Shown: positions 3-47,096, counted from the first letter of the stretch. The stretch: DNA of 62,153 bases from an uncultured Gammaproteobacteria bacterium (GCA_964404855.1 CAYOLO010000003.1:1-62153); one strand, 5' to 3'. Made by a program: numbers and translations. Notes: generated by a model from the sequence alone, not told the origin.

Positions 3-149
3 GTAGCAGAAACTAAGGATACTAATAACATTAGTAGTCTCCGCCAAGAGGAGCAAATTAAAATACTCTCTGCACGGGCTATGTTTAAGGAGGTCATGCC
101 GGAGGTTATTTTCAAAGCTCCCGTAAGCGAGTTTAGCGACCTTGCATGA
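3..149 (+). CDS. 5'-truncated hypothetical protein (C-terminus only)
   Basis: Open frame from window edge (VAETKDTNNISSLRQEE...SEFSDLA*); TGA overlaps next ATG (ATGA). Confidence 0.5.
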   Translation, partial: VAETKDTNNISSLRQEEQIKILSARAMFKEVMPEVIFKAPVSEFSDLA

Positions 150-316
150 TAAGCAAAAAAAGTGCTGATAATCTGAAAAAGATATTTAAGGAGGAGTACA
201 AAGCCGACTTAACAGACGAGGAGGCAAAGGAAGCGGGTCAAAAGTTGGTTGACTACTTTAGTCTTTTAATTGAGATTGATAAGAAAGCCAAAATTGTAAG
301 AAAAAATGAAAAATGA
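146..316 (+). CDS. 56-aa small helical protein, not in ORF track
   Basis: MISKKSADNLKKIFKEEYKADLTDEEAKEAGQKLVDYFSLLIEIDKKAKIVRKNEK*; overlaps both neighbours; resembles small proteins I recall beside CPR recombinases. Confidence 0.7.
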   Translation: MISKKSADNLKKIFKEEYKADLTDEEAKEAGQKLVDYFSLLIEIDKKAKIVRKNEK

Positions 317-605
317 AGATGGAATTACTATTACGTGTCCTAAGTGTGGAAGAATAAAATTAGAAGCCTATCAAAACGAGGGCGTGCTTGCTGGCTTAGT
401 GCAGACTAAATGCGAAAGGTGTAAAACTATAACAGATTTTCTTATGCTCCAAGATAAAGTGTATATCTACGACGATAAATTAAGGAATAACCCTAAACGA
501 ATTAAGAAATTACTTAACGAGTTCAAAAACAAATTGCCTAACGATAGAAAAATTGATATACTAGAAGCAATAACGGAGACGTTATTAGGAAACGAAAAAT
601 CATAG
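306..605 (+). CDS. Com-like (phage Mu Com family) zinc-finger regulator
   Basis: TCPKCGRIKLE...VQTKCERCKT, CxxC-x24-CxxC, followed by a hairpin-rich leader. Confidence 0.65.
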   Translation: MKNEDGITITCPKCGRIKLEAYQNEGVLAGLVQTKCERCKTITDFLMLQDKVYIYDDKLRNNPKRIKKLLNEFKNKLPNDRKIDILEAITETLLGNEKS

Positions 606-638
606 CCATTGTCTTCTGGCTCTAAAGTTGAAGATTTG

Positions 639-688
639 AGGCTCACGAAGCCCTAACCAATTGCGAAATTGGTGGAGGGCTTTTTTTT
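639..688 (+). promoter_or_regulatory. Two-state terminator/antiterminator-like hairpin switch
   Basis: AGCCCT (650-655) can pair with AGGGCT 639-644 or AGGGCT 676-681; the latter forms a GCGA-loop hairpin followed by T8. Confidence 0.6.
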
Positions 689-708
689 ATGCCCCAAATC
701 AAAAAACT

Positions 709-960
709 ATGAGTACAATGACTATGAAAAATGAGCTTTATTCTACTTCTGATTTACCCCTTGTAGCGACGCTATCCCTCTATTTTCCCGTAGAGAAAAT
801 TGACACAACTAACCCACGTCGCACTTCTTTCTTATTTCTCCAAACCACCGAACTAAACGACTTGATAACCAAGTATTGGCGAAAGGAACTACGCATAGAA
901 CCCTTAGCCTTTTTTAATCAGTTAAAAACGGTCAAAACCATGCTTTATTCAAGAGTTTAG
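709..960 (+). CDS. DUF5659-like protein
   Basis: YSTSDLPLVATL...FLF...YWRKELRIEPLAFFNQLKTVK pattern; start probably ATG 709/718/724, not TTG 661 inside the hairpin. Confidence 0.7.
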   Translation: MSTMTMKNELYSTSDLPLVATLSLYFPVEKIDTTNPRRTSFLFLQTTELNDLITKYWRKELRIEPLAFFNQLKTVKTMLYSRV

Positions 961-971
961 CTATGTAACCT

Positions 972-1613
972 ATGAGAAATAATGAAGATGTAAATAAGAA
1001 ATTAGGAGGTTATTACCCCACTTATAGGGGCAAATTACTATTGCTTAAATCTAAGGCACTAACTTTTCAAGAGTATGTATTGTATGACGCTAGTATCGCA
1101 CTTGCTGACTGGGATAAAAAACATGGAGACCGCTACGGGACATTAAAACTATCGCAGGAGGAAATTGAGGTAGTGCTGGGATGTAGCAAAGGGTTTGTAT
1201 CCCGTCATGGAAAGGAGCTATATAAAAAGGGCTTCTGGGAAAAAGACGAGTATGGCAGAACTCGTGTAGTAGGCTTTGAGCTAATTGAAACTGGGCTACT
1301 TAAAACAATTACCAAAAAAGATAAGGTAGTAAATCTACAAAATTATATTGCAAATAAGCAAATCTATGACGCATTACTACAACAAGATATTGCAGAAAAG
1401 CAACTGATAAGCTCTAAAGAAGAGAGTACTTTTCAAGGCAAAAGTGTTGCAGATATACAACCTCCCCGTCCTATATCTGATTTAGTTTCCTCTAAGGGTG
1501 AATATAGTTTTAGAGATACTAGTACTGGTTTATCAGATGAAGATATTAGATTAATTGAGGAAAGTTTAGCCGAAAGTACGCAAGTTAAGGGTAAGGAGGG
1601 TGGCTATGATTAA
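972..1613 (+). CDS. Winged-HTH protein, phage/plasmid replication-initiator-like
   Basis: LSQEEIEVVLGCSKGFVSRHGKELYKKGF HTH-like segment; low-complexity C-terminus; position in element. Confidence 0.55.
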   Translation: MRNNEDVNKKLGGYYPTYRGKLLLLKSKALTFQEYVLYDASIALADWDKKHGDRYGTLKLSQEEIEVVLGCSKGFVSRHGKELYKKGFWEKDEYGRTRVVGFELIETGLLKTITKKDKVVNLQNYIANKQIYDALLQQDIAEKQLISSKEESTFQGKSVADIQPPRPISDLVSSKGEYSFRDTSTGLSDEDIRLIEESLAESTQVKGKEGGYD

Positions 1614-1800
1614 GCCGACACCTCCTGCTCCAACAACAACATTTTCCAAGGACGAAATTATTGAGCAGAAAATGAGGCTCTTGGCTAATTTTATGATTGA
1701 CCGAATTTTGGAAAACAAGGAAATTAAACCATCTATAGAAATCCCTAAAAATGCTATTATTAAAGTAACTCCATCTCGCAAGGATGGAACACAATTATGA
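1600..1800 (+). CDS. Small hypothetical protein
   Basis: 66 aa; overlaps upstream ORF and recombinase start (ATGA); GGAGG upstream. Confidence 0.6.
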   Translation: MAMIKPTPPAPTTTFSKDEIIEQKMRLLANFMIDRILENKEIKPSIEIPKNAIIKVTPSRKDGTQL

Positions 1801-3575
1801 GCATTACAATGAAAAAAGCTGTTATTGCAGTTAGGGTGTCTTCCACAAAGCAAGGCTTGGTTGGTGATAGTCCAGAAGACCAGAAAATGCTACTTGATAA
1901 GCTGGCGATTACTCTTAATGCAAAGGCTCTAAAAGTCTTCAAATTCGTGCAATCTGCCTCTGGCGATATACAGCCGAACCAAGAAGCCATAGATTATTGT
2001 AAAAACCATAAGGTAGATTACTTTCTAATCAAATCCATAGACCGCTTTACTCGTGGCGGAGCTTACCAATATGAGTTTTTGAAGTCTCAACTTACCAAAT
2101 ACGGTGTTCAGTTGGTTGACGCCTACGGTATCGTAGGTAGGCAATCCATCAATACGCTAGACCATTTAGATATTGAATATAAATGGTCTAGGTATAGCCC
2201 TACCAAGAACTCTGAAATACTAGAGGCAGAACGAGCAAAAGATGAAATAAGGGATATCTTAAGCCGTTTAATTGGAGCAGAAATACGTTATACACGGTTA
2301 GGCTACGCAGTATTTAATTCTCAATTTGGACTTATGAACAAAAAGGTGGAAACGGTACACGGCAAGCGAGTTATACGGGTAAAACATCCCAAAGAGGGCG
2401 AATGGGTAATAAAAATGTTTAATTTACGTGCTGAGGGGCGTCTAAAGGACTACGAAATTGTAAACGAACTAAACCTAGATGGCTTTAGAACCAGACAAAC
2501 TAAAATTAGAAGTAGTGAAAACCCAAACATAACAATTGGCTATAAGGATGGAAAACAACTTACGGTTAAAATGCTCCAAAATTATATAAAAAACCCAATT
2601 TATGCGGGAGTTATAGTTGGCAAGTGGACGAACGGACTACCTATTAAAGCGCAATTTGACGGCATAGTAGATATAGACACGTTTAATAAGGCTAACAGAG
2701 GCAAAATCACCTTAATAAAAGATGGTAACGAGATAACGATGTATAGAGGAAAAGTACCGCTCTGGCGAACCGCTAAAAATAGAGATAATCCATTATTTCC
2801 GTATAAAAACTATGTGCTTTGCCCTAGCTGTAAAAATCCATTTCTGGGGAGCGCACCTAGAAGCAAAAGTGGAAAACATATACCTATTTACCATTGTGGA
2901 AGCAAATCAAGCAGTATACGAAAGCACGATTATTTAGGCATAAACAAAAAAGAATTTGAGGAAACTATTAGTAATCTATTGGCTCACGTCCATTTTAATG
3001 ACGATTTTAAGCAAAAGTTTATAAACATATTTTTTGAAGAATGGGAGAAAAGACGCAAAGAGGCGTCCCAAAAGACCATAGATTATGGTAAGCAGATAAG
3101 TGATTTATCTATAGAAATTAACTCGTTAATTGAAAAAATCTCGCTACTATCCTTACCAGAGGCTATACAGTCCATAGAGGAAAAGATTGGTGAGAAGAAA
3201 GCACGAAAAGCACAACTTATCCAAGCACGAGATAAAGGCGAGGATGAAGAGCTAAAAATTGACGGTTTAATGAACCAAGCAAAATACTTTATGGAACACC
3301 TAGAAGAATTGTTGACTGGAGGCTCAAATCCTCTTGTTAATGGGGCTATATTTGGTCTGCTTTTTGATGAGCGACCAACCTACCAAGATTTACTTAATGG
3401 AACACCGAAATTATCGCCTCTATTCAAGCTAAACGATACTTTCGTCTCTTCAAAAGAAGAGTTTGTGACCCGACTGGGACTCGAACCCAGAACACCTCGC
3501 TTAAAAGGCGAGTGCTCTACCATTGAGCTATCGGGCCATAAAACTAATACGCGCGGGGTATTTTACTCTAAATAG
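1797..3575 (+). CDS. Large serine recombinase (resolvase + recombinase + Zn-ribbon/coiled coil)
   Basis: VRVSSTKQ catalytic Ser motif, SIDRFTR, CPSC...YHC ribbon, coiled coil; last ~36 codons run antisense through and past tRNA-Lys. Confidence 0.93.
   Translation: MSITMKKAVIAVRVSSTKQGLVGDSPEDQKMLLDKLAITLNAKALKVFKFVQSASGDIQPNQEAIDYCKNHKVDYFLIKSIDRFTRGGAYQYEFLKSQLTKYGVQLVDAYGIVGRQSINTLDHLDIEYKWSRYSPTKNSEILEAERAKDEIRDILSRLIGAEIRYTRLGYAVFNSQFGLMNKKVETVHGKRVIRVKHPKEGEWVIKMFNLRAEGRLKDYEIVNELNLDGFRTRQTKIRSSENPNITIGYKDGKQLTVKMLQNYIKNPIYAGVIVGKWTNGLPIKAQFDGIVDIDTFNKANRGKITLIKDGNEITMYRGKVPLWRTAKNRDNPLFPYKNYVLCPSCKNPFLGSAPRSKSGKHIPIYHCGSKSSSIRKHDYLGINKKEFEETISNLLAHVHFNDDFKQKFINIFFEEWEKRRKEASQKTIDYGKQISDLSIEINSLIEKISLLSLPEAIQSIEEKIGEKKARKAQLIQARDKGEDEELKIDGLMNQAKYFMEHLEELLTGGSNPLVNGAIFGLLFDERPTYQDLLNGTPKLSPLFKLNDTFVSSKEEFVTRLGLEPRTPRLKGECSTIELSGHKTNTRGVFYSK
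3466..3537 (-). tRNA. tRNA-Lys(TTT)
   Basis: GGCCCGA/TCGGGTC acceptor, CTCGC-CTTTTAA-GCGAG anticodon arm, GGTTCGAGTCC T arm; CCA not encoded. Confidence 0.97.
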
Positions 3576-3744
3576 AAAGGCTAAGACAAGCGTAATTTTA
3601 AATATAGTTTTGACTAACAATTATATAATGGTAAGGCTTGTTGGCTAGTACCTTAAAAAGCCGCCACCTCTTAAGTTCCCCACCCGCCAAACCACTCCTT
3701 GTTCGTGACCCCCAATCAAACAGAAGGACAAAAAAGTAACCACA

Positions 3745-4146
3745 ATGAAACTCTTTCGCGTCGTTCCGACCGAGGGTGATGGAGAATAGTGGGGAATACT
3801 GGTGCTGGCTGAAACTGAGGTTGATGCCACCACTGACCCCTGCCTGAGCCTCAATCGTCCGTCCAATCGCAATGGCCGAGGCAAGCTCTGCTACCAAGCA
3901 ACCGAACTGACAACGGCCAGAAAAACGGATGTCGAAGCCGCTCATCACTGCCCTAAATACATCTGGGCTTTTGATGACAGCTCAAACTTGGGCCGAGACT
4001 TCTTGGCTCTAGAACTTAAGCGCAGGCACGAGCACAGGCCAATGGCCGAGCTTAGGCTTCCGCGAATCGTCGGCAAGGTGTCGAGCGCCAAGCCAAGATC
4101 AAGGGTAAGGGAGTCAGGCGAACAGCCTGAAAGTATCGCGAGCTGA
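3745..4146 (+). pseudogene. Orphan ORF interrupted by one in-frame TAG (codon 15)
   Basis: ATG 3745 with upstream AAGGA is in frame with track ORF 3802-4146: MKLFRVVPTEGDGE*WGILVLAETEV... Confidence 0.45.
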
Positions 4147-4186
4147 CCCTCTGGCAGAGGTCTCTCCACTAGCAGGCAAGCACAAC

Positions 4187-4223
4187 ACCCCCTGCGACTA
4201 AAAATCAAAGGGGGGTTTTCTTT
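4187..4223 (+). terminator. Rho-independent terminator
   Basis: ACCCCCT...AGGGGGGT followed by TTTTCTTT. Confidence 0.6.
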
Positions 4224-4239
4224 AACAAGGACAAAAACC

Positions 4240-4452
4240 GTGCGCAAGAACTACCGAGTGTACTGCACTCGCGGAGTGCACCCCTACGAACCAATCGTTA
4301 CTGCTGGAAGTCCAGACGAGGCAATAGCCAAAGTCAAAGACAGTTTCAGCCGACTGTACGGCAAGAAAATGAAAGGCGAAGAAGGTTGTCGGAAATCAGG
4401 AGAAGATTGCAGTTTGTCTGCAGTCCAAACAGCCAAAAAAGCTGAAAGTTAA
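4240..4452 (+). CDS. Orphan hypothetical protein (70 aa)
   Basis: GTG start with AAGGA upstream; terminator follows stop. Confidence 0.55.
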   Translation: MRKNYRVYCTRGVHPYEPIVTAGSPDEAIAKVKDSFSRLYGKKMKGEEGCRKSGEDCSLSAVQTAKKAES

Positions 4453-11991: not shown

Positions 11992-14900
11992 CTAGATATT
12001 AACACTTAAGGCTTCGACTTTGCAACCAAGAAGCGAAAGATCACTTATAAGATTATCACTCAGTTCGGCGCCAAATGGAACAGGCACATTGCGGGTTTGC
12101 CCGTCTGTACCTTCGAGAAGAAGATAAGTTTGTTTTTGGCCTGGGAACTTTTTGAGAATTTCGTAGATTGAATGGAGGGTCTGGCGTGAGGCCATTTTGG
12201 GAATAATAATACCAATTCCCTCTGGAGTTGAAGGTGAGTGAGGAATATGACTACTAGCTGAAGCCATCACATTCGTCGGTGTGACATCAGGTAGAATCGA
12301 CAAATCTGTAATTATTTCAGCCAAAATTGCGCTTTCTTCTTCACGCGAGTCTAGTTTGCCTTCAAGAATTACAATTGCGTCTTCGTTGAGTACACTCTTA
12401 AATTGTGAGAATGTTTTTGGAAAAACGACAATATCCATCGTACCCGTCTCGTCCTCGATTTTGATAAAAGCCATTTCTTCACCCTTGGCCTTGGTAAAAG
12501 TTCGTCTCATGCTGGAAATAATTCCTCCAATTTTGACTTTGGAACCCGGCTGGTAGTCTTCTTTGAGGTTGATGATTTTGTGTGTGGCGTAGTGGTTAAG
12601 TTTTGTTTGCGAACCTGAAATAGGATGACGCGTGAGATAAAGACCCAAAAATTCTTTTTCCCAAGCCAAAAGTTCTTTTTCACCAGCTTCTTTGCCGTTT
12701 TTGAGACTTTCGGTAAGCGGAGAGTCATCAAGTGAAGGGTTTTTGATTTCTAGATCAGCTTCTTCAAACAGCATGCCCTGTCCTTCAGAAACTTTTTGAC
12801 TTAAAGACTGCCCTGTCGCTCTTAGGGCATCAATAATATCCAGCATTGCTTGACGTTTACCAAAAAGATCCATGGCTCCAGCTTTGATAAGGCTTTCGAA
12901 GGTTTTTTTGTTGACGGTTCTAAGATTAACTCGGCGACAAAAGTCATTAAGAGAGCTAAAGTCTGATTCTTCTCTGGCTTCCAATATGGAGTGAATTGCA
13001 GCTTCGCCAACATTTTTGATTGCTGATAAACCAAATCTAATCGCCCTTTTGTCTTTTTCGTCGGTTTCAATTGTAAAACCAATATCAGAACGATTGATAT
13101 CTGGACTGAGAACTTCGATACCAAGACGCTCACACTCAGCGACGGCTTGAGCGATTTTTTCAGTGTCGCCTGATTCGGCAGTCATAACAGCACACATAAA
13201 TTCGACCGTAAAGTTGGCTTTCATATAAGCTGTTTGATAAGCAACAACGGCGTATGAAGCAGCGTGGGCTTTGTTAAAACCATAGCCTGTAAACGGTTCA
13301 ATTAGAGCAAAAAGTGCCTTAGCGCGAGCTTCGGACAAACCATGTTCAATTGCACCATTAATAAACTTGTCTTTTTGTTTAGCCATTTCTTCAGGAATTT
13401 TTTTACCAATGGCTTTTCGGAATTTGTCGACCTCTTCCCAGTTGTAACCTGCGATGTTAATGGCAGTTAACAAAACATCATCTTGATAAGTAATAACTCC
13501 ATAGCTTTCTTTGAGGAATTCCTCCATGCGGGGATCAAAATATTTGATTTTAGTCGCATCATGTTTACGTTCAATAAATTCTGGAATAGAAGCCATAGGA
13601 CCCGGCCTAAAAAGCGAAATCATAGCCATAATATCGAAAATGTTCGTCGGCTTAAGCTCTTTTAAGTATCTTGTCATTCCTGAGCCGCCGAGCTGAAATA
13701 ATCCCATAGTCTCGCCTCTAGCCATCATCTCATAGGCCTTAACATCATCGAATGGTAATTTTTCTAGTTCGATTTTTATACCTTTTTCGCGTTCAACAAT
13801 TTCGACGGCGTTACCCAAAATAGATAAGTTTCTTATACCCAAGAAATCCATTTTGACAAGGCCGGCATCTTCAACTCCATGCATATCATATTGTGTAGAA
13901 ATTACTTCACCCTTACTCTCTTTGAGAAGCGGAGTGAAGTTAGTCACTGGACCTGGAGCAATGACAACGCCAGCAGCGTGAACACTGGTGTGTCTAGCAA
14001 GACCTTCGATTTGCATGGCTGTATCAAGTAGTTCTTTGGTTTCGGTATCAGTTTTGTATAGTTCACCAAGTTCTGGGGTAACTTCAATGGCTTTTTTGAT
14101 TGTCATCGGAAAGCCTTGTTTGCCAAGGGGTATTAGTTTGGAAATACGGTCAGCTTTGGAATATGGCCAACCAAGGGCACGCGCAACGTCACGGACAGCA
14201 CCTTTGGCCATCATTGTTCCTAGTGTGCCAATTTGAGCGACTTTTTCTGCACCGTATTTTTCTTTGACGTAATTAATAACATCGTCGCGGCGCGAGTCAG
14301 CAATATCGACATCAATATCAGGTAGAGACGGCCTGAACGGATTAAGAAATCTTTCAAACGGCAATTTGAAAAAGAGTGGGTTAACGGTGGTTATTCCTAG
14401 GCCGTAAGAGACTAGCGAGCCTGCCGCAGAACCACGAGTAGTTGAAACGATGCCTTGTTTTTTGGCAGCTCTAATAAAGTCAGCCACGACTAAAAAGTAG
14501 GTAGAATAACCTTTGTCGATAATGACTTTGAGCTCGTACTCAAATCTTTCCATGACTTTTTCGTCGACGGGGCTGATTTTTTCCTTGATACCTTTTAGTG
14601 ATTCTTCTCTTAAAAACACCTCAGGTTTTTCGCCACCTGGGACTTCAAATAATGGGAAGTGATACTGACCGAGGGGAATTTCGATATTTATTTTGTTTGC
14701 AATTTTGACGGAGTTTTCTAAAAATTCTGGGTTATCGGGAAATAATGACGCCATTTCTTCGCCTGACTTGAGGTAATAGACAGGCGCATCGACCATACGC
14801 AGACGATTGACTTCGTTGACTGTTTTGCCTGTTTGAATACAGACCAAAACGTCCTGAGCAAAAGCATCAGTTGGCTCAATGTAGTGCAAATCACCCGTAG

Positions 14901-45464: not shown

Positions 45465-47096
45465 TTATTTAATCGCTGATTTTATAAAACCTACAAACAT
45501 TGGATGAGGCGAAAGCGGCCTCGATAATAGCTCTGGGTGAAATTGGCTTGCAATAAAAAATGGATGGGTTGGAATTTCGATAATTTCAACAAGCCCTGTC
45601 TCAGGATTAACTCCACTAACCTCAAGACCGGCTTTGGTGAATTTGTTGACGTAAGAGTTGTTGACTTCATACCTGTGTCTGTGACGCTCAAAAATTATGC
45701 CTTTGTTATAAAGTTTTTTAGCAAGACTTGATGGGGATAATTTACACTTGTACAAACCTAATCTCATTGAGTTTCCCATTTCAGCCTTAGCAAGTTTGCT
45801 TTTTTGACTTTCCATAATATCAATCACAGGATTTTTGGTATTGGGACTTATTTCTGTTGTGTCGGCGTCACTAATACCTAAAACATTTCTACAAAATTCT
45901 ACAACAGCCAAATGAAGTCCGTAACAAAGACCAAGATAGGGAACGTTCTCTGTTCGGGCATACTTTATCGCTCTAATTATTCCATCCACACCTCGTACGC
46001 CGAAACCACCTGGTACTACAATCCCGCTAAATTCAGAAAGAACCTCTATGGTTTTTTTGTCCGAATCGAGAGTTTGTGAGTCAATCCAAGAAAGTTTAAC
46101 AGCAACAGAGTTGGCAACTCCGGCGTGTTTAATTGCTTCGATTACTGAGATGTACGAATCAGACAAGTTGAAATCTCCGGTATTAAAATATTTTCCGACG
46201 ACGGCAATGTTAATGGTTTTTTTGGGATTTTTGGTTTTTTGTACATATTTTTCCCAAGCGGTAATCTTGGCATTTTTCTTTTTTAAGAATAATTTTTTAA
46301 GTATTTGATTACAAAATTTTTGAGAGTTGAGAATCATCGGAATATCATAAATTGATTCAACGTCGGGATTGGAAATAATATTTTCTGGAGTCATGTTGCA
46401 AAAAAGTGAAAGCTTGTCCTTGCGTTTTTGATCCATGGGGAATTCTGACCTGCAAATCAAAAAGTCTGGCTGAAGTCCAAAGGAATTAAGCATTCGTACT
46501 GATTGCTGAATTGGTTTTGACTTCATTTCACCAATCGACTTGGGGGTAGGTAGATATCCAACGTGAATATGTACAACATCTTTGGGGTGCAGAAGTTTAA
46601 GTATTCTATTGGCTTCTAAAAAAAGCGTGTTTTGATATTCACCGACCGTACCACCTATTTCAATAACTACAATATCAGCCTTAGACTTGTCAGCAAGCAG
46701 GTCAATTTGGCTAATAATTTGATTTGGTACGTCAGGTACAACCTCAACACAACGACCTTCAAATTCTAGTCTGCGTTCTCTGGCTATGATTTCTGAATAA
46801 ACCTTTCCTGTCGTTGTAAAATTCAGCTTGGATAAATTTTCATTTAAGAATCTTTCGTAGTTGCCAAGATCCTGATCTGTTTCGGCGCCGTCATCTGTGA
46901 CAAACACCTCACCATGTTCGGTGGGGTTCATAGTGCCGGCGTCAACATTAATATATGGATCGCATTTGAATGGGGAAACTTTATAACCGTGACTTTTGAG
47001 AAGTAAACTGATTGAAGCGGTCGTTATACCTTTTCCGACTCCGGAAATAACACCACCAGAAACAAAAATGTATTTTCTAGGTTTTTTGACCACCAA
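45465..47096 (-). CDS. pyrG: CTP synthase
   Basis: SGGVISGVGKG, DPYINVDAGTM, GLCYG, ERHRHRYE, QFHPE. Confidence 0.98.
   Translation of the reverse strand: MVVKKPRKYIFVSGGVISGVGKGITTASISLLLKSHGYKVSPFKCDPYINVDAGTMNPTEHGEVFVTDDGAETDQDLGNYERFLNENLSKLNFTTTGKVYSEIIARERRLEFEGRCVEVVPDVPNQIISQIDLLADKSKADIVVIEIGGTVGEYQNTLFLEANRILKLLHPKDVVHIHVGYLPTPKSIGEMKSKPIQQSVRMLNSFGLQPDFLICRSEFPMDQKRKDKLSLFCNMTPENIISNPDVESIYDIPMILNSQKFCNQILKKLFLKKKNAKITAWEKYVQKTKNPKKTINIAVVGKYFNTGDFNLSDSYISVIEAIKHAGVANSVAVKLSWIDSQTLDSDKKTIEVLSEFSGIVVPGGFGVRGVDGIIRAIKYARTENVPYLGLCYGLHLAVVEFCRNVLGISDADTTEISPNTKNPVIDIMESQKSKLAKAEMGNSMRLGLYKCKLSPSSLAKKLYNKGIIFERHRHRYEVNNSYVNKFTKAGLEVSGVNPETGLVEIIEIPTHPFFIASQFHPELLSRPLSPHPMFVGFIKSAIK

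Follow-up and report, generated by a model that had tools for sequence, protein, structure and literature searches.

A conserved cassette of a predicted promoter, leader, and terminator at the 3′ end of a zinc-ribbon gene, ahead of the serine recombinase module of an integrated mobile element

The window analysed here is the whole stretch of 62,153 nucleotides (nt) from an uncultured Gammaproteobacteria bacterium (GCA_964404855.1 CAYOLO010000003.1:1-62153), and its first 3.5 kb constitute the right end of an integrated mobile element. In this segment, the end of a restriction enzyme gene is followed by a 56-amino-acid (aa) open reading frame (ORF), a zinc-ribbon gene, a DUF5659 gene, a 213-aa gene, a 64-aa gene, and the gene of a large serine recombinase. 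The 3′ end of the zinc-ribbon gene and the short spacer behind it carry a predicted promoter, a leader with several hairpins, and a predicted intrinsic terminator (Table 1). Across the relatives of the zinc-ribbon gene, which are divided into five classes, namely W (the class of the window), P13/P9, P17, L022, and L024, this arrangement constitutes a conserved and previously undescribed cassette.

Table 1. Positions of the cassette features and adjoining genes in the window, with the promoter hexamers of the other classes
Feature	Position	Strand	Description
56-aa ORF	146–316		upstream neighbour, 11-nt overlap with zinc-ribbon gene
Zinc-ribbon gene	306–605	+	99 aa; Cys11, 14, 36, 39
Predicted sigma-70 promoter, W	534–562	+	−35 TTGCCT 534–539, 17-nt spacer, TG 554–555, −10 TATACT 557–562
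Predicted promoter, P13			−35 TTGACA; −10 TATACT
Predicted promoter, P9 / P17			−35 TTGACA; −10 TATATT
Predicted promoter, L022			−35 TTGCCT; −10 TATAAT
Predicted promoter, L024			−35 TTGAAA; −10 TATAAT
5′ leader hairpin	569–586	+	AAUAACG-GAGA-CGUUAUU, GNRA loop; W class only
Extended read-through hairpin	600–727	+	terminator at tip; ~130 nt; minimum-energy fold
Stop-codon hairpin	604–621	+	AGCCA 604–608 / UGGCU 617–621; −5.7 kcal/mol
Conserved block GAGRCUCNNGAAGYCCU	638–654	+	contains mini-hairpin 640–643/649–652 and terminator 5′ arm
Predicted intrinsic terminator	647–689	+	8-bp outer stem, 7-bp inner stem, GCGA loop, U8
DUF5659 gene	718–960	+	PF18903, 31.4 bits; first gene past terminator
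213-aa gene	972–1613	+	without family assignment
64-aa gene	1606–1800	+	strong Shine-Dalgarno AAGGAGG 1592–1598; overlaps recombinase start
Large serine recombinase gene	1797–3575	+	Pfam Resolvase, Recombinase, Zn_ribbon_recom; phrog_95

The order behind the zinc-ribbon gene is shared by all classes: a hairpin at its stop codon or immediately past it, a further hairpin with a run of seven or eight U residues, and genes ending in the serine recombinase. In all relatives found, the recombinase module is separated from the zinc-ribbon gene by a terminator. A first-pass annotation of the window had described a Com-like zinc finger and an RNA switch gating the recombinase genes; with the terminator in all relatives and no other downstream promoter found, gating is a fair word for this position. 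The intervening genes vary with the class, being DUF5659 in W, a ParB-N6/N4 methylase in P13 and P17, and an uncalled 61-aa ORF in L024. In P13 and P17, the zinc-ribbon gene opens its unit and diverges from an HTH_17 gene, so that everything from the ParB-methylase through the recombinase lies behind the terminator. The 61-aa ORF of L024 (4777–4965) begins with a GUG right past the T-run and shares 8 nt with the start of the recombinase gene, making it the positional counterpart of the 64-aa gene of the window. Within the W class, positions 586–645 are 97–100% identical, compared with 77–87% for most of the coding sequence; between classes, the core shares 66–76% identity, compared with 50–53% for the coding sequence. 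The leader is kept beyond the needs of a promoter or a terminator.

The terminator is formed by an outer stem pairing GAAGCCCU (647–654) with AGGGCUUU (676–683) and an inner stem pairing ACCAAUU (656–662) with AAUUGGU (667–673), with the loop at 663–666 and the T8 run at 682–689. Folded alone, it reaches −20.3 kcal/mol, and the segment 596–712 folds better than 200 of 200 shuffles (z = −4.5). Covariation was assessed in an alignment of 11 distinct sequences from the W, P13, and P17 classes, in which 100% of the cells of 14 terminator pairs are standard pairs. In three inner pairs both partners are exchanged (C:G/U:A, C:G/G:C, and U:A/C:G), and the pair 651:679 varies among C:G, U:G, and U:A. 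None of 500 shuffles reaches this pairing score, controls with slid partners collapse, and the RNAalifold consensus gives the same terminator structure. The terminator is real and covariation-supported, and it is predicted to be intrinsic; the GCGA-loop hairpin with T8, already noted as terminator-like in the first-pass annotation, is borne out by both its folding energy and its compensatory changes. A scan with the outer-stem pattern yields 74 metagenome and 5 viral-contig matches, of which only L064, L080, and L097 are relatives, the others being generic terminators. In one DNA run (X6), the assembly breaks just past the T-run, with one contig ending at 704 and another starting at 689, which may reflect length variation of the T-run or a mosaic junction.

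Upstream of this terminator, the final 160 nt of the zinc-ribbon genes and the intergenic spacer were scanned for promoters. Each class has exactly one sigma-70-like site, with 17 nt between the hexamers in every case and 9–11 of 12 hexamer matches, and between the zinc-ribbon gene and the next start none has a second promoter-like site. Sites this good have a background density of 5e-5 to 3e-4 per nt in these sequences, and in L026 and L024 the internal promoter is the sole site in the locus with at least 11 of 12 matches. The distance from the end of the −10 hexamer to the end of the stop codon is exactly 19 nt in four classes and 43 nt in W. The hexamers lie in frame on invariant Leu and Ile residues, for which all classes use TTG and ATA preceded by a codon ending in T; TTG accounts for 12–20% of Leu codons and ATA for 15–46% of Ile codons. 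In the W class, both hexamers and the TG are invariant and the spacer varies. Because synonymous sites appear to be under selection, the promoter is taken as functional, and the last codons of the zinc-ribbon gene contain a predicted sigma-70 promoter. Transcription is predicted to start near A569 in the window and, in the other classes, ~9 nt upstream of the stop codon, and the predicted transcripts would reach the terminator 70–120 nt on in every class. With such an internal promoter, the region becomes a promoter-proximal leader or a short RNA of ~120 nt ending at the terminator, and since no other promoter is found, the downstream genes appear to depend on read-through.

The predicted transcript contains further hairpins before the terminator. 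The 5′ leader hairpin shows a compensatory change from G:C to C:G in L017 and L019, with loops of GAGA, GAAA, and GCAA. The AGCCA/UGGCU hairpin, which had been proposed to cover the stop codon, does so at the energy given in Table 1, its 5′ arm overlapping the TAG at 603–605. This hairpin competes with a longer local hairpin (604–607/640–643 plus inner helices) and with the base helix of a long-range pairing described below. L022, L023/L026, L113, and L024 likewise have a hairpin directly past the stop codon. As cross-class features, the hairpin 604–621 and an outer helix at 633–642/691–700 were rejected, with 83% of cells paired and the pairing lost in P17. Furthermore, the conserved block around the 5′ arm of the terminator occurs in exactly one copy per locus in W, P13, and P17 and nowhere else, and it is kept between classes whose proteins are ~30% identical. 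This conservation indicates selection on the sequence of the block, possibly but not necessarily on the mini-hairpin. In L019 (770–845), the zinc-ribbon ORF is shortened to 94 aa by changes near its end and the leader is intact through the terminator, as would be expected if it is the RNA, not the protein, that is under selection.

A covariance model (R1) scores the leaders of W, P13, and P17 at 108–142 bits, clearly apart from everything else. In Rfam, no family matches the segment 560–760 at its gathering score, the best reaching 18.8 bits against thresholds of 39–70; a scan of the whole window returns tRNAs only, and a permissive scan is also without a match. In L022 (6372–6445), a second terminator lies behind the first, with its arms interleaved with those of another 10-bp hairpin (a1 b1 a2 b2), and the two cannot form together unless as a pseudoknot.

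The sequences flanking the terminator on either side are also complementary to each other in the W class, and the resulting extended hairpin is the minimum-energy fold common to the window, L006, and L014. Its helices are 600–605/722–727, 607–612/715–720, 619–622/711–714, 626–629/705–708, 633–638/695–700, and 640–642/691–693. The base is formed by UCAUAG (600–605) with CUAUGA (722–727) and CAUUGU (607–612) with ACAAUG (715–720). The DUF5659 gene, which begins 28 nt past the terminator, starts at AUG718 or AUG724, AUG709 not being kept (a stop stands there in L014), and both candidate starts are buried in the extended fold against the stop region (UAG) of the zinc-ribbon gene. Simultaneously, the small hairpin 604–621 is excluded. 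The duplex between the W-class flanks 597–646 and 690–730 reaches −29.5 kcal/mol, compared with −10.8 ± 2.7 kcal/mol for shuffles (z = −6.9, 0 of 300). In the case of L024, a weaker version, in which UUGGCACAA pairs with UUGUGCCAA, covers the GUG of the ORF that follows (z = −3.1). The middle tier of the extended hairpin is not better than random, and the different 3′ flank of L014 was rejected as compensatory evidence, 12–14% of random segments doing as well. Because the W-class pairs are invariant and the middle part of L014 is at random level, the support for the long-range pairing is statistical rather than evolutionary.

The zinc-ribbon protein consists of a Com-type N-terminal ribbon and a C-terminal helical part. 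The four cysteines of the ribbon, arranged as two CxxC pairs (C11, C14, C36, and C39), are invariant in 12 sequences from the five classes. The family is very small, with 16 clusters among 5.8 billion proteins, and beyond those clusters an exhaustive HMMER search finds just three distant small proteins. Aligned by hhalign with a PF10122-bearing protein, the family profile matches over 34 columns of the ribbon with 98% probability (E = 2e-13). The window protein itself has no match to PF10122 at E ≤ 0.1, and the Pfam Com threshold is unmet in every class, the best relative (P0010) reaching 21.0 bits against a cut-off of 22.9; NF047912 scores 23.9 bits with the window protein, also under its cut-off. 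The AF2 model (pLDDT 77) contains five strands and three helices and has no match among PDB structures at E ≤ 0.001, and a PDB sequence search returns weak generic zinc ribbons only. No match is found by tblastn against annotated plasmids and phages, nor in viral-contig scans with the zinc ribbon and with DUF5659. The designation Com-like is supported as a fold relationship rather than as family membership: the four-Cys ribbon and the profile alignment uphold it, and the PF10122 threshold is not reached.

The host element is probably integrative and conjugative. In identical copies from other assemblies, an HTH gene and type IV secretion genes (TrbC, TrbL, VirB4-like, and TraG-like) lie past the recombinase, and a type III restriction-modification system lies on the upstream side. 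One identical copy is present in a genome bin labelled uncultured Gammaproteobacteria, some relatives adjoin greA, and the copies derive from sludge and wastewater samples. In the integrated copy of the window, the recombinase ORF runs into a tRNA-Lys on the opposite strand. Since identity with the unintegrated-type copies (L001/L025) stops at 3471/3472, inside the 3′ end of the tRNA, the element provides the last bases of the tRNA. The crossover site lies within the 3′ end of the element's own recombinase gene (3465–3575 in the window), the ORF of which measures 573 aa in unintegrated-type copies, 568 aa beside greA, and 592 aa in the window. The cargo before the zinc-ribbon gene is defence-related in most copies (L001 1–9850; L026 1–4910) and includes restriction-modification systems of type III or type I, GmrSD/SLFN-AlbA proteins, and an MmeI-like enzyme together with an SNF2/PLD protein. 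On several wastewater metatranscriptome contigs, a closely related DUF5659 gene has a different upstream sequence (...AACTCTTGTTAGTTTAACTATGAAAA) joined at position 715, so the DUF5659 module is also found behind other leaders; no literature on DUF5659 was found. The label "rep-like" once given to the 213-aa gene finds no family support in profile scans. Further downstream, the segment between tRNA-Lys and tRNA-Glu (3700–4300) has 53–58% GC against a background of 39%; its ORFs are without a Pfam match, Rfam gives no match even in a permissive scan, and its fold z-scores are only −1.9 and −1.3.

We interpret the segment 534–717 as a compact regulatory cassette, namely an attenuator that gates the recombination module with the zinc-ribbon protein as its probable effector, and we hold this reading to be about evenly balanced between right and wrong. 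Transcription would begin near 569, and the RNA, with its two or three hairpins, would run into the terminator, giving by default a product of ~120 nt. The recombination module (DUF5659, the 213-aa and 64-aa genes, and the serine recombinase) would be transcribed by read-through only, and the attenuator would keep recombinase expression low. Binding of the zinc-ribbon protein to the conserved leader would then increase read-through or improve the use of the read-through RNA, the candidate binding sites being the block 638–654, which overlaps the 5′ arm of the terminator, and the stop-codon hairpin. In the W class, the read-through RNA may fold into the 130-nt hairpin, which would have to be opened by a ribosome terminating at the UAG (603–605) or by the protein, in the manner of Com on mom mRNA. 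The zinc-ribbon protein is the candidate for this role, as no other neighbour is conserved and it is related to a protein that binds RNA hairpins. A narrower proposal, that this Com-type protein serves as an RNA-binding antiterminator rather than a translational activator through the block over the terminator 5′ arm, and would thereby turn a short RNA made constitutively into transcripts of the whole recombinase module, is made tentatively, and we regard it as doubtful. In addition, the module is covered by metatranscriptome contigs from related elements, among them one that extends from 504 to 743 across the terminator, consistent with some read-through.

Several observations weigh against the attenuator reading. 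These RNA contigs are of low depth, with DNA carry-over possible, and the RNA ends are only predicted. Promoter activity is likewise a prediction, and the copy in the window is the weakest (9 of 12 matches plus the TG). The leaders of L022 and L024 score 27 and 20.5 bits under R1, in the same range as generic terminators, and RNA-level homology between them and the leaders of W, P13, and P17 is not claimed. The long-range pairs are invariant in the W class, hence without covariation, and the flank pairing is not significant in P13, P17, and L022. The link between protein and RNA is one that we infer, with a Pfam Com score below threshold and no solved structure resembling the model. Meanwhile, the leaders of W, P13, and P17 lack the RNA motif of Mu Com, CC(N)2-3GAG, which occurs in L022 and in L024, in the latter within a 6-nt loop at the position of the mini-hairpin.

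An ordinary, unregulated terminator might suffice instead, ending the operon of the cargo and the zinc ribbon and insulating the module, which would receive a fixed trickle of read-through, the protein being unrelated to it. The shape is generic, with 70 of the 74 metagenome pattern matches being unrelated terminators behind tRNA, rRNA, and other genes, and insulating terminators are known in conjugative elements, such as T1 of Tn916 (PMC11658703). This explanation seems unlikely to us, as it accounts neither for the near-consensus promoter held by synonymous codons 70–120 nt upstream in all classes, nor for the unpaired 5′ flank 638–646, kept despite ~30% protein identity, nor for the flank pairing. 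The short RNA might itself be the product, a small RNA (sRNA) that base-pairs with the start regions of the module's own genes. Every class provides for it a promoter, two or three hairpins, and a U7–8 terminator within 70–120 nt, and the leader is the best-conserved stretch. Positions 600–612 are complementary to the DUF5659 start region, and positions 598–617 (AAUCAUAGCCAUUGUCUUCU) complement the Shine-Dalgarno sequence and AUG of the 64-aa gene (1594–1611) with a duplex of −22 to −25 kcal/mol, kept across the W class. The latter complementarity is real but not beyond chance and was rejected as evidence; by chance, an 11-nt complement should occur roughly once per 20 kb, and host DNA contains two more (13617–13629 and 46781–46792). 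A search for a comparable target of the P13 leader finds none, and the downstream genes would still be without a promoter, so that read-through would be required anyway; an sRNA as the product is accordingly rated improbable.

In the two-state RNA switch of the first-pass annotation, the protein would stabilise GGCU-CNNGA-AGYC (640–652), which takes the 5′ arm of the terminator and leads to read-through. The two partners proposed for AGCCCT are indeed mutually exclusive, but this motif lies at 649–654 rather than 650–655, and its upstream partner is a 4-bp helix rather than the 6-bp one at 639–644. The block is kept in W, P13, and P17, the mini-hairpin pairs in 11 of 11 sequences with three pairs invariant and the fourth varying among A:U, G:U, and G:C, and the equivalent in L024 is a short hairpin whose 6-nt loop holds CC(N)3GAG. 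Protein-dependent antiterminator hairpins, such as those of BglG/LicT, are expected to be weak on their own, which counts in favour of such a switch. Nevertheless, the helix GGCU (640–643)/AGCC (649–652), with 4 bp and a 5-nt loop, reaches −4.3 kcal/mol against −20.3 kcal/mol for the terminator, and its ensemble probability is ~1e-5 against at least 0.86 for the terminator pairs. Covariation of the leader, which had been suggested as a check, is present in the terminator stem (0 of 500 shuffles), whereas 285 of 500 shuffles do as well as the switch helix. In the predicted short RNA, GGCU 640–643 pairs with AGCC 604–607; the mini-hairpin is absent from L022 and has only 3 bp in L024, where the motif has a chance expectation of 20–35% for that leader length by our estimate. 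Since this pairing is far weaker than the terminator, it could matter only if something stabilises it; the two-state switch is not upheld, and its exact form appears very unlikely. A purely translational control, in the manner of Com, would make termination constitutive and partial and place the regulated step at the opening of the hairpin over the DUF5659 starts, by the protein at the hairpin 604–621 or by ribosomes finishing the zinc-ribbon ORF. The flank duplex over AUG718 and AUG724 (z = −6.9) and its L024 analogue over the GUG of the next ORF (z = −3.1) favour it, and such opening is the documented mode of action of Com (PMC6483171). The invariance of the pairs and their lack of significance in P13, P17, and L022 count against it, and transcripts from the internal promoter would be untranslated through the stop codon, leaving ribosome coupling to longer transcripts only; we judge this mode, taken alone, quite unlikely. 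At the DNA level, the 13-bp inverted repeat 600–612/715–727, with one mismatch, could flank an invertible or protein-bound segment that orients the terminator, which works in one direction only, and the gene of a serine recombinase lies close by. A single orientation, free of strand-switch joints, is seen in all 21 W-class loci and in four DNA runs, with the reservation that contigs may hide rare variants; moreover, the complementarity is nested along the whole segment like that of an RNA hairpin, and the recombinase has its crossover site at its own 3′ end. An invertible or protein-bound DNA segment is hardly credible.

The integrases of mobile elements need near-silence and yet inducibility, and the controls of large serine recombinases in conjugative elements are largely unknown. 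The cassette places a promoter, a leader RNA, and a terminator within ~190 nt, partly coding, beside a gene whose product may regulate by binding RNA. Control of the terminator by this protein would mean that the Com fold has been re-used for transcription termination, a new job in which the gene's own last codons double as the promoter of the target RNA, and the cassette would represent a protein-responsive terminator that is small and portable. With the short RNA as the effector, the element would encode a new sRNA. Whichever reading holds, dual coding is cleanly exemplified by the promoter that synonymous codons maintain.

Compared with known systems, the cassette is a member of none, as each fails at least one of the defining features that were tested. 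The com-mom pair of phage Mu is similar in that a small four-Cys zinc-ribbon gene, related at the profile level, lies directly upstream of the regulated gene, and in the W class the next gene likewise has its start codon buried in a structure. The RNA targets of Com proteins are short hairpins beside a structure that conceals a start codon, with, for Mu Com, a selected motif of CC(N)2-3GAG (PMC6483171), and that motif is missing from the W, P13, and P17 leaders. Com homologues often precede DNA methylase genes, for example in FluMu, Pnm1, and B3, and in P13 and P17 the next gene is likewise a DNA methylase, as in these com-methylase operons of Mu-like prophages (PMC3299994). However, the protein described here is longer (79–103 aa), has a conserved helical C-terminal part, and falls below the Pfam threshold; an intrinsic terminator and an internal promoter, both predicted, lie between the two genes, and the host is an integrative element with a serine recombinase rather than a transposable phage. 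In the case of conAn, the bipartite antitermination system of pLS20-type conjugative plasmids, a small protein gene is also followed directly by a cis-acting RNA with inverted repeats at its borders, and both stand at the start of a long operon of the conjugative element, but conAn2 comprises 260–600 nt without a terminator and acts on terminators further downstream, and ConAn1, from Gram-positive plasmids, is not described as a zinc protein (PMC8191782). In Tn916, the terminator T1 insulates replication and recombination functions and must be overcome, whereas canT is a 452-bp cis-acting RNA elsewhere in the element with no known protein partner (PMC11658703). Neither T1 nor canT has a sequence relation to the cassette.

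In ribonucleic antiterminator (RAT) attenuators of the BglG/LicT and ANTAR types, the 5′ arm of a promoter-proximal terminator can join a small upstream hairpin, and the 5′ arm of the cassette terminator overlaps a possible mini-hairpin in a comparable way. The Pfam scan, however, finds no CAT/PRD or ANTAR domain here, and the alternative hairpin has 4 bp, compared with a structure of ~29 nt, and is statistically unsupported. P1 c4 RNA and P4 CI RNA have targets further down their own operon, and the leader is similarly complementary to start regions further down the same operon. Type I sRNAs derived from 3′ untranslated regions (3′-UTRs), such as MicL and DapZ, arise from an ORF-internal promoter near the gene end and share the terminator of the mRNA, a layout also predicted here. 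Unlike in those 3′-UTR sRNAs, the next gene of the cassette starts close behind the terminator (28 nt) without its own promoter, and the sRNA role is putative. In the Q/PR′/tR′ system of lambda (6S RNA), a regulator gene is followed by a strong promoter, a short terminated transcript, and a long operon that depends on read-through, which is the same logic as the layout of the cassette. The differences are that no Q-family match occurs in the Pfam scan, that the promoter spacer, where the Q site would lie, varies within the W class, and that no −10-like pause element is seen in the first transcribed bases. Conservation in the cassette resides instead in the transcribed leader, which points to recognition of RNA rather than of DNA.

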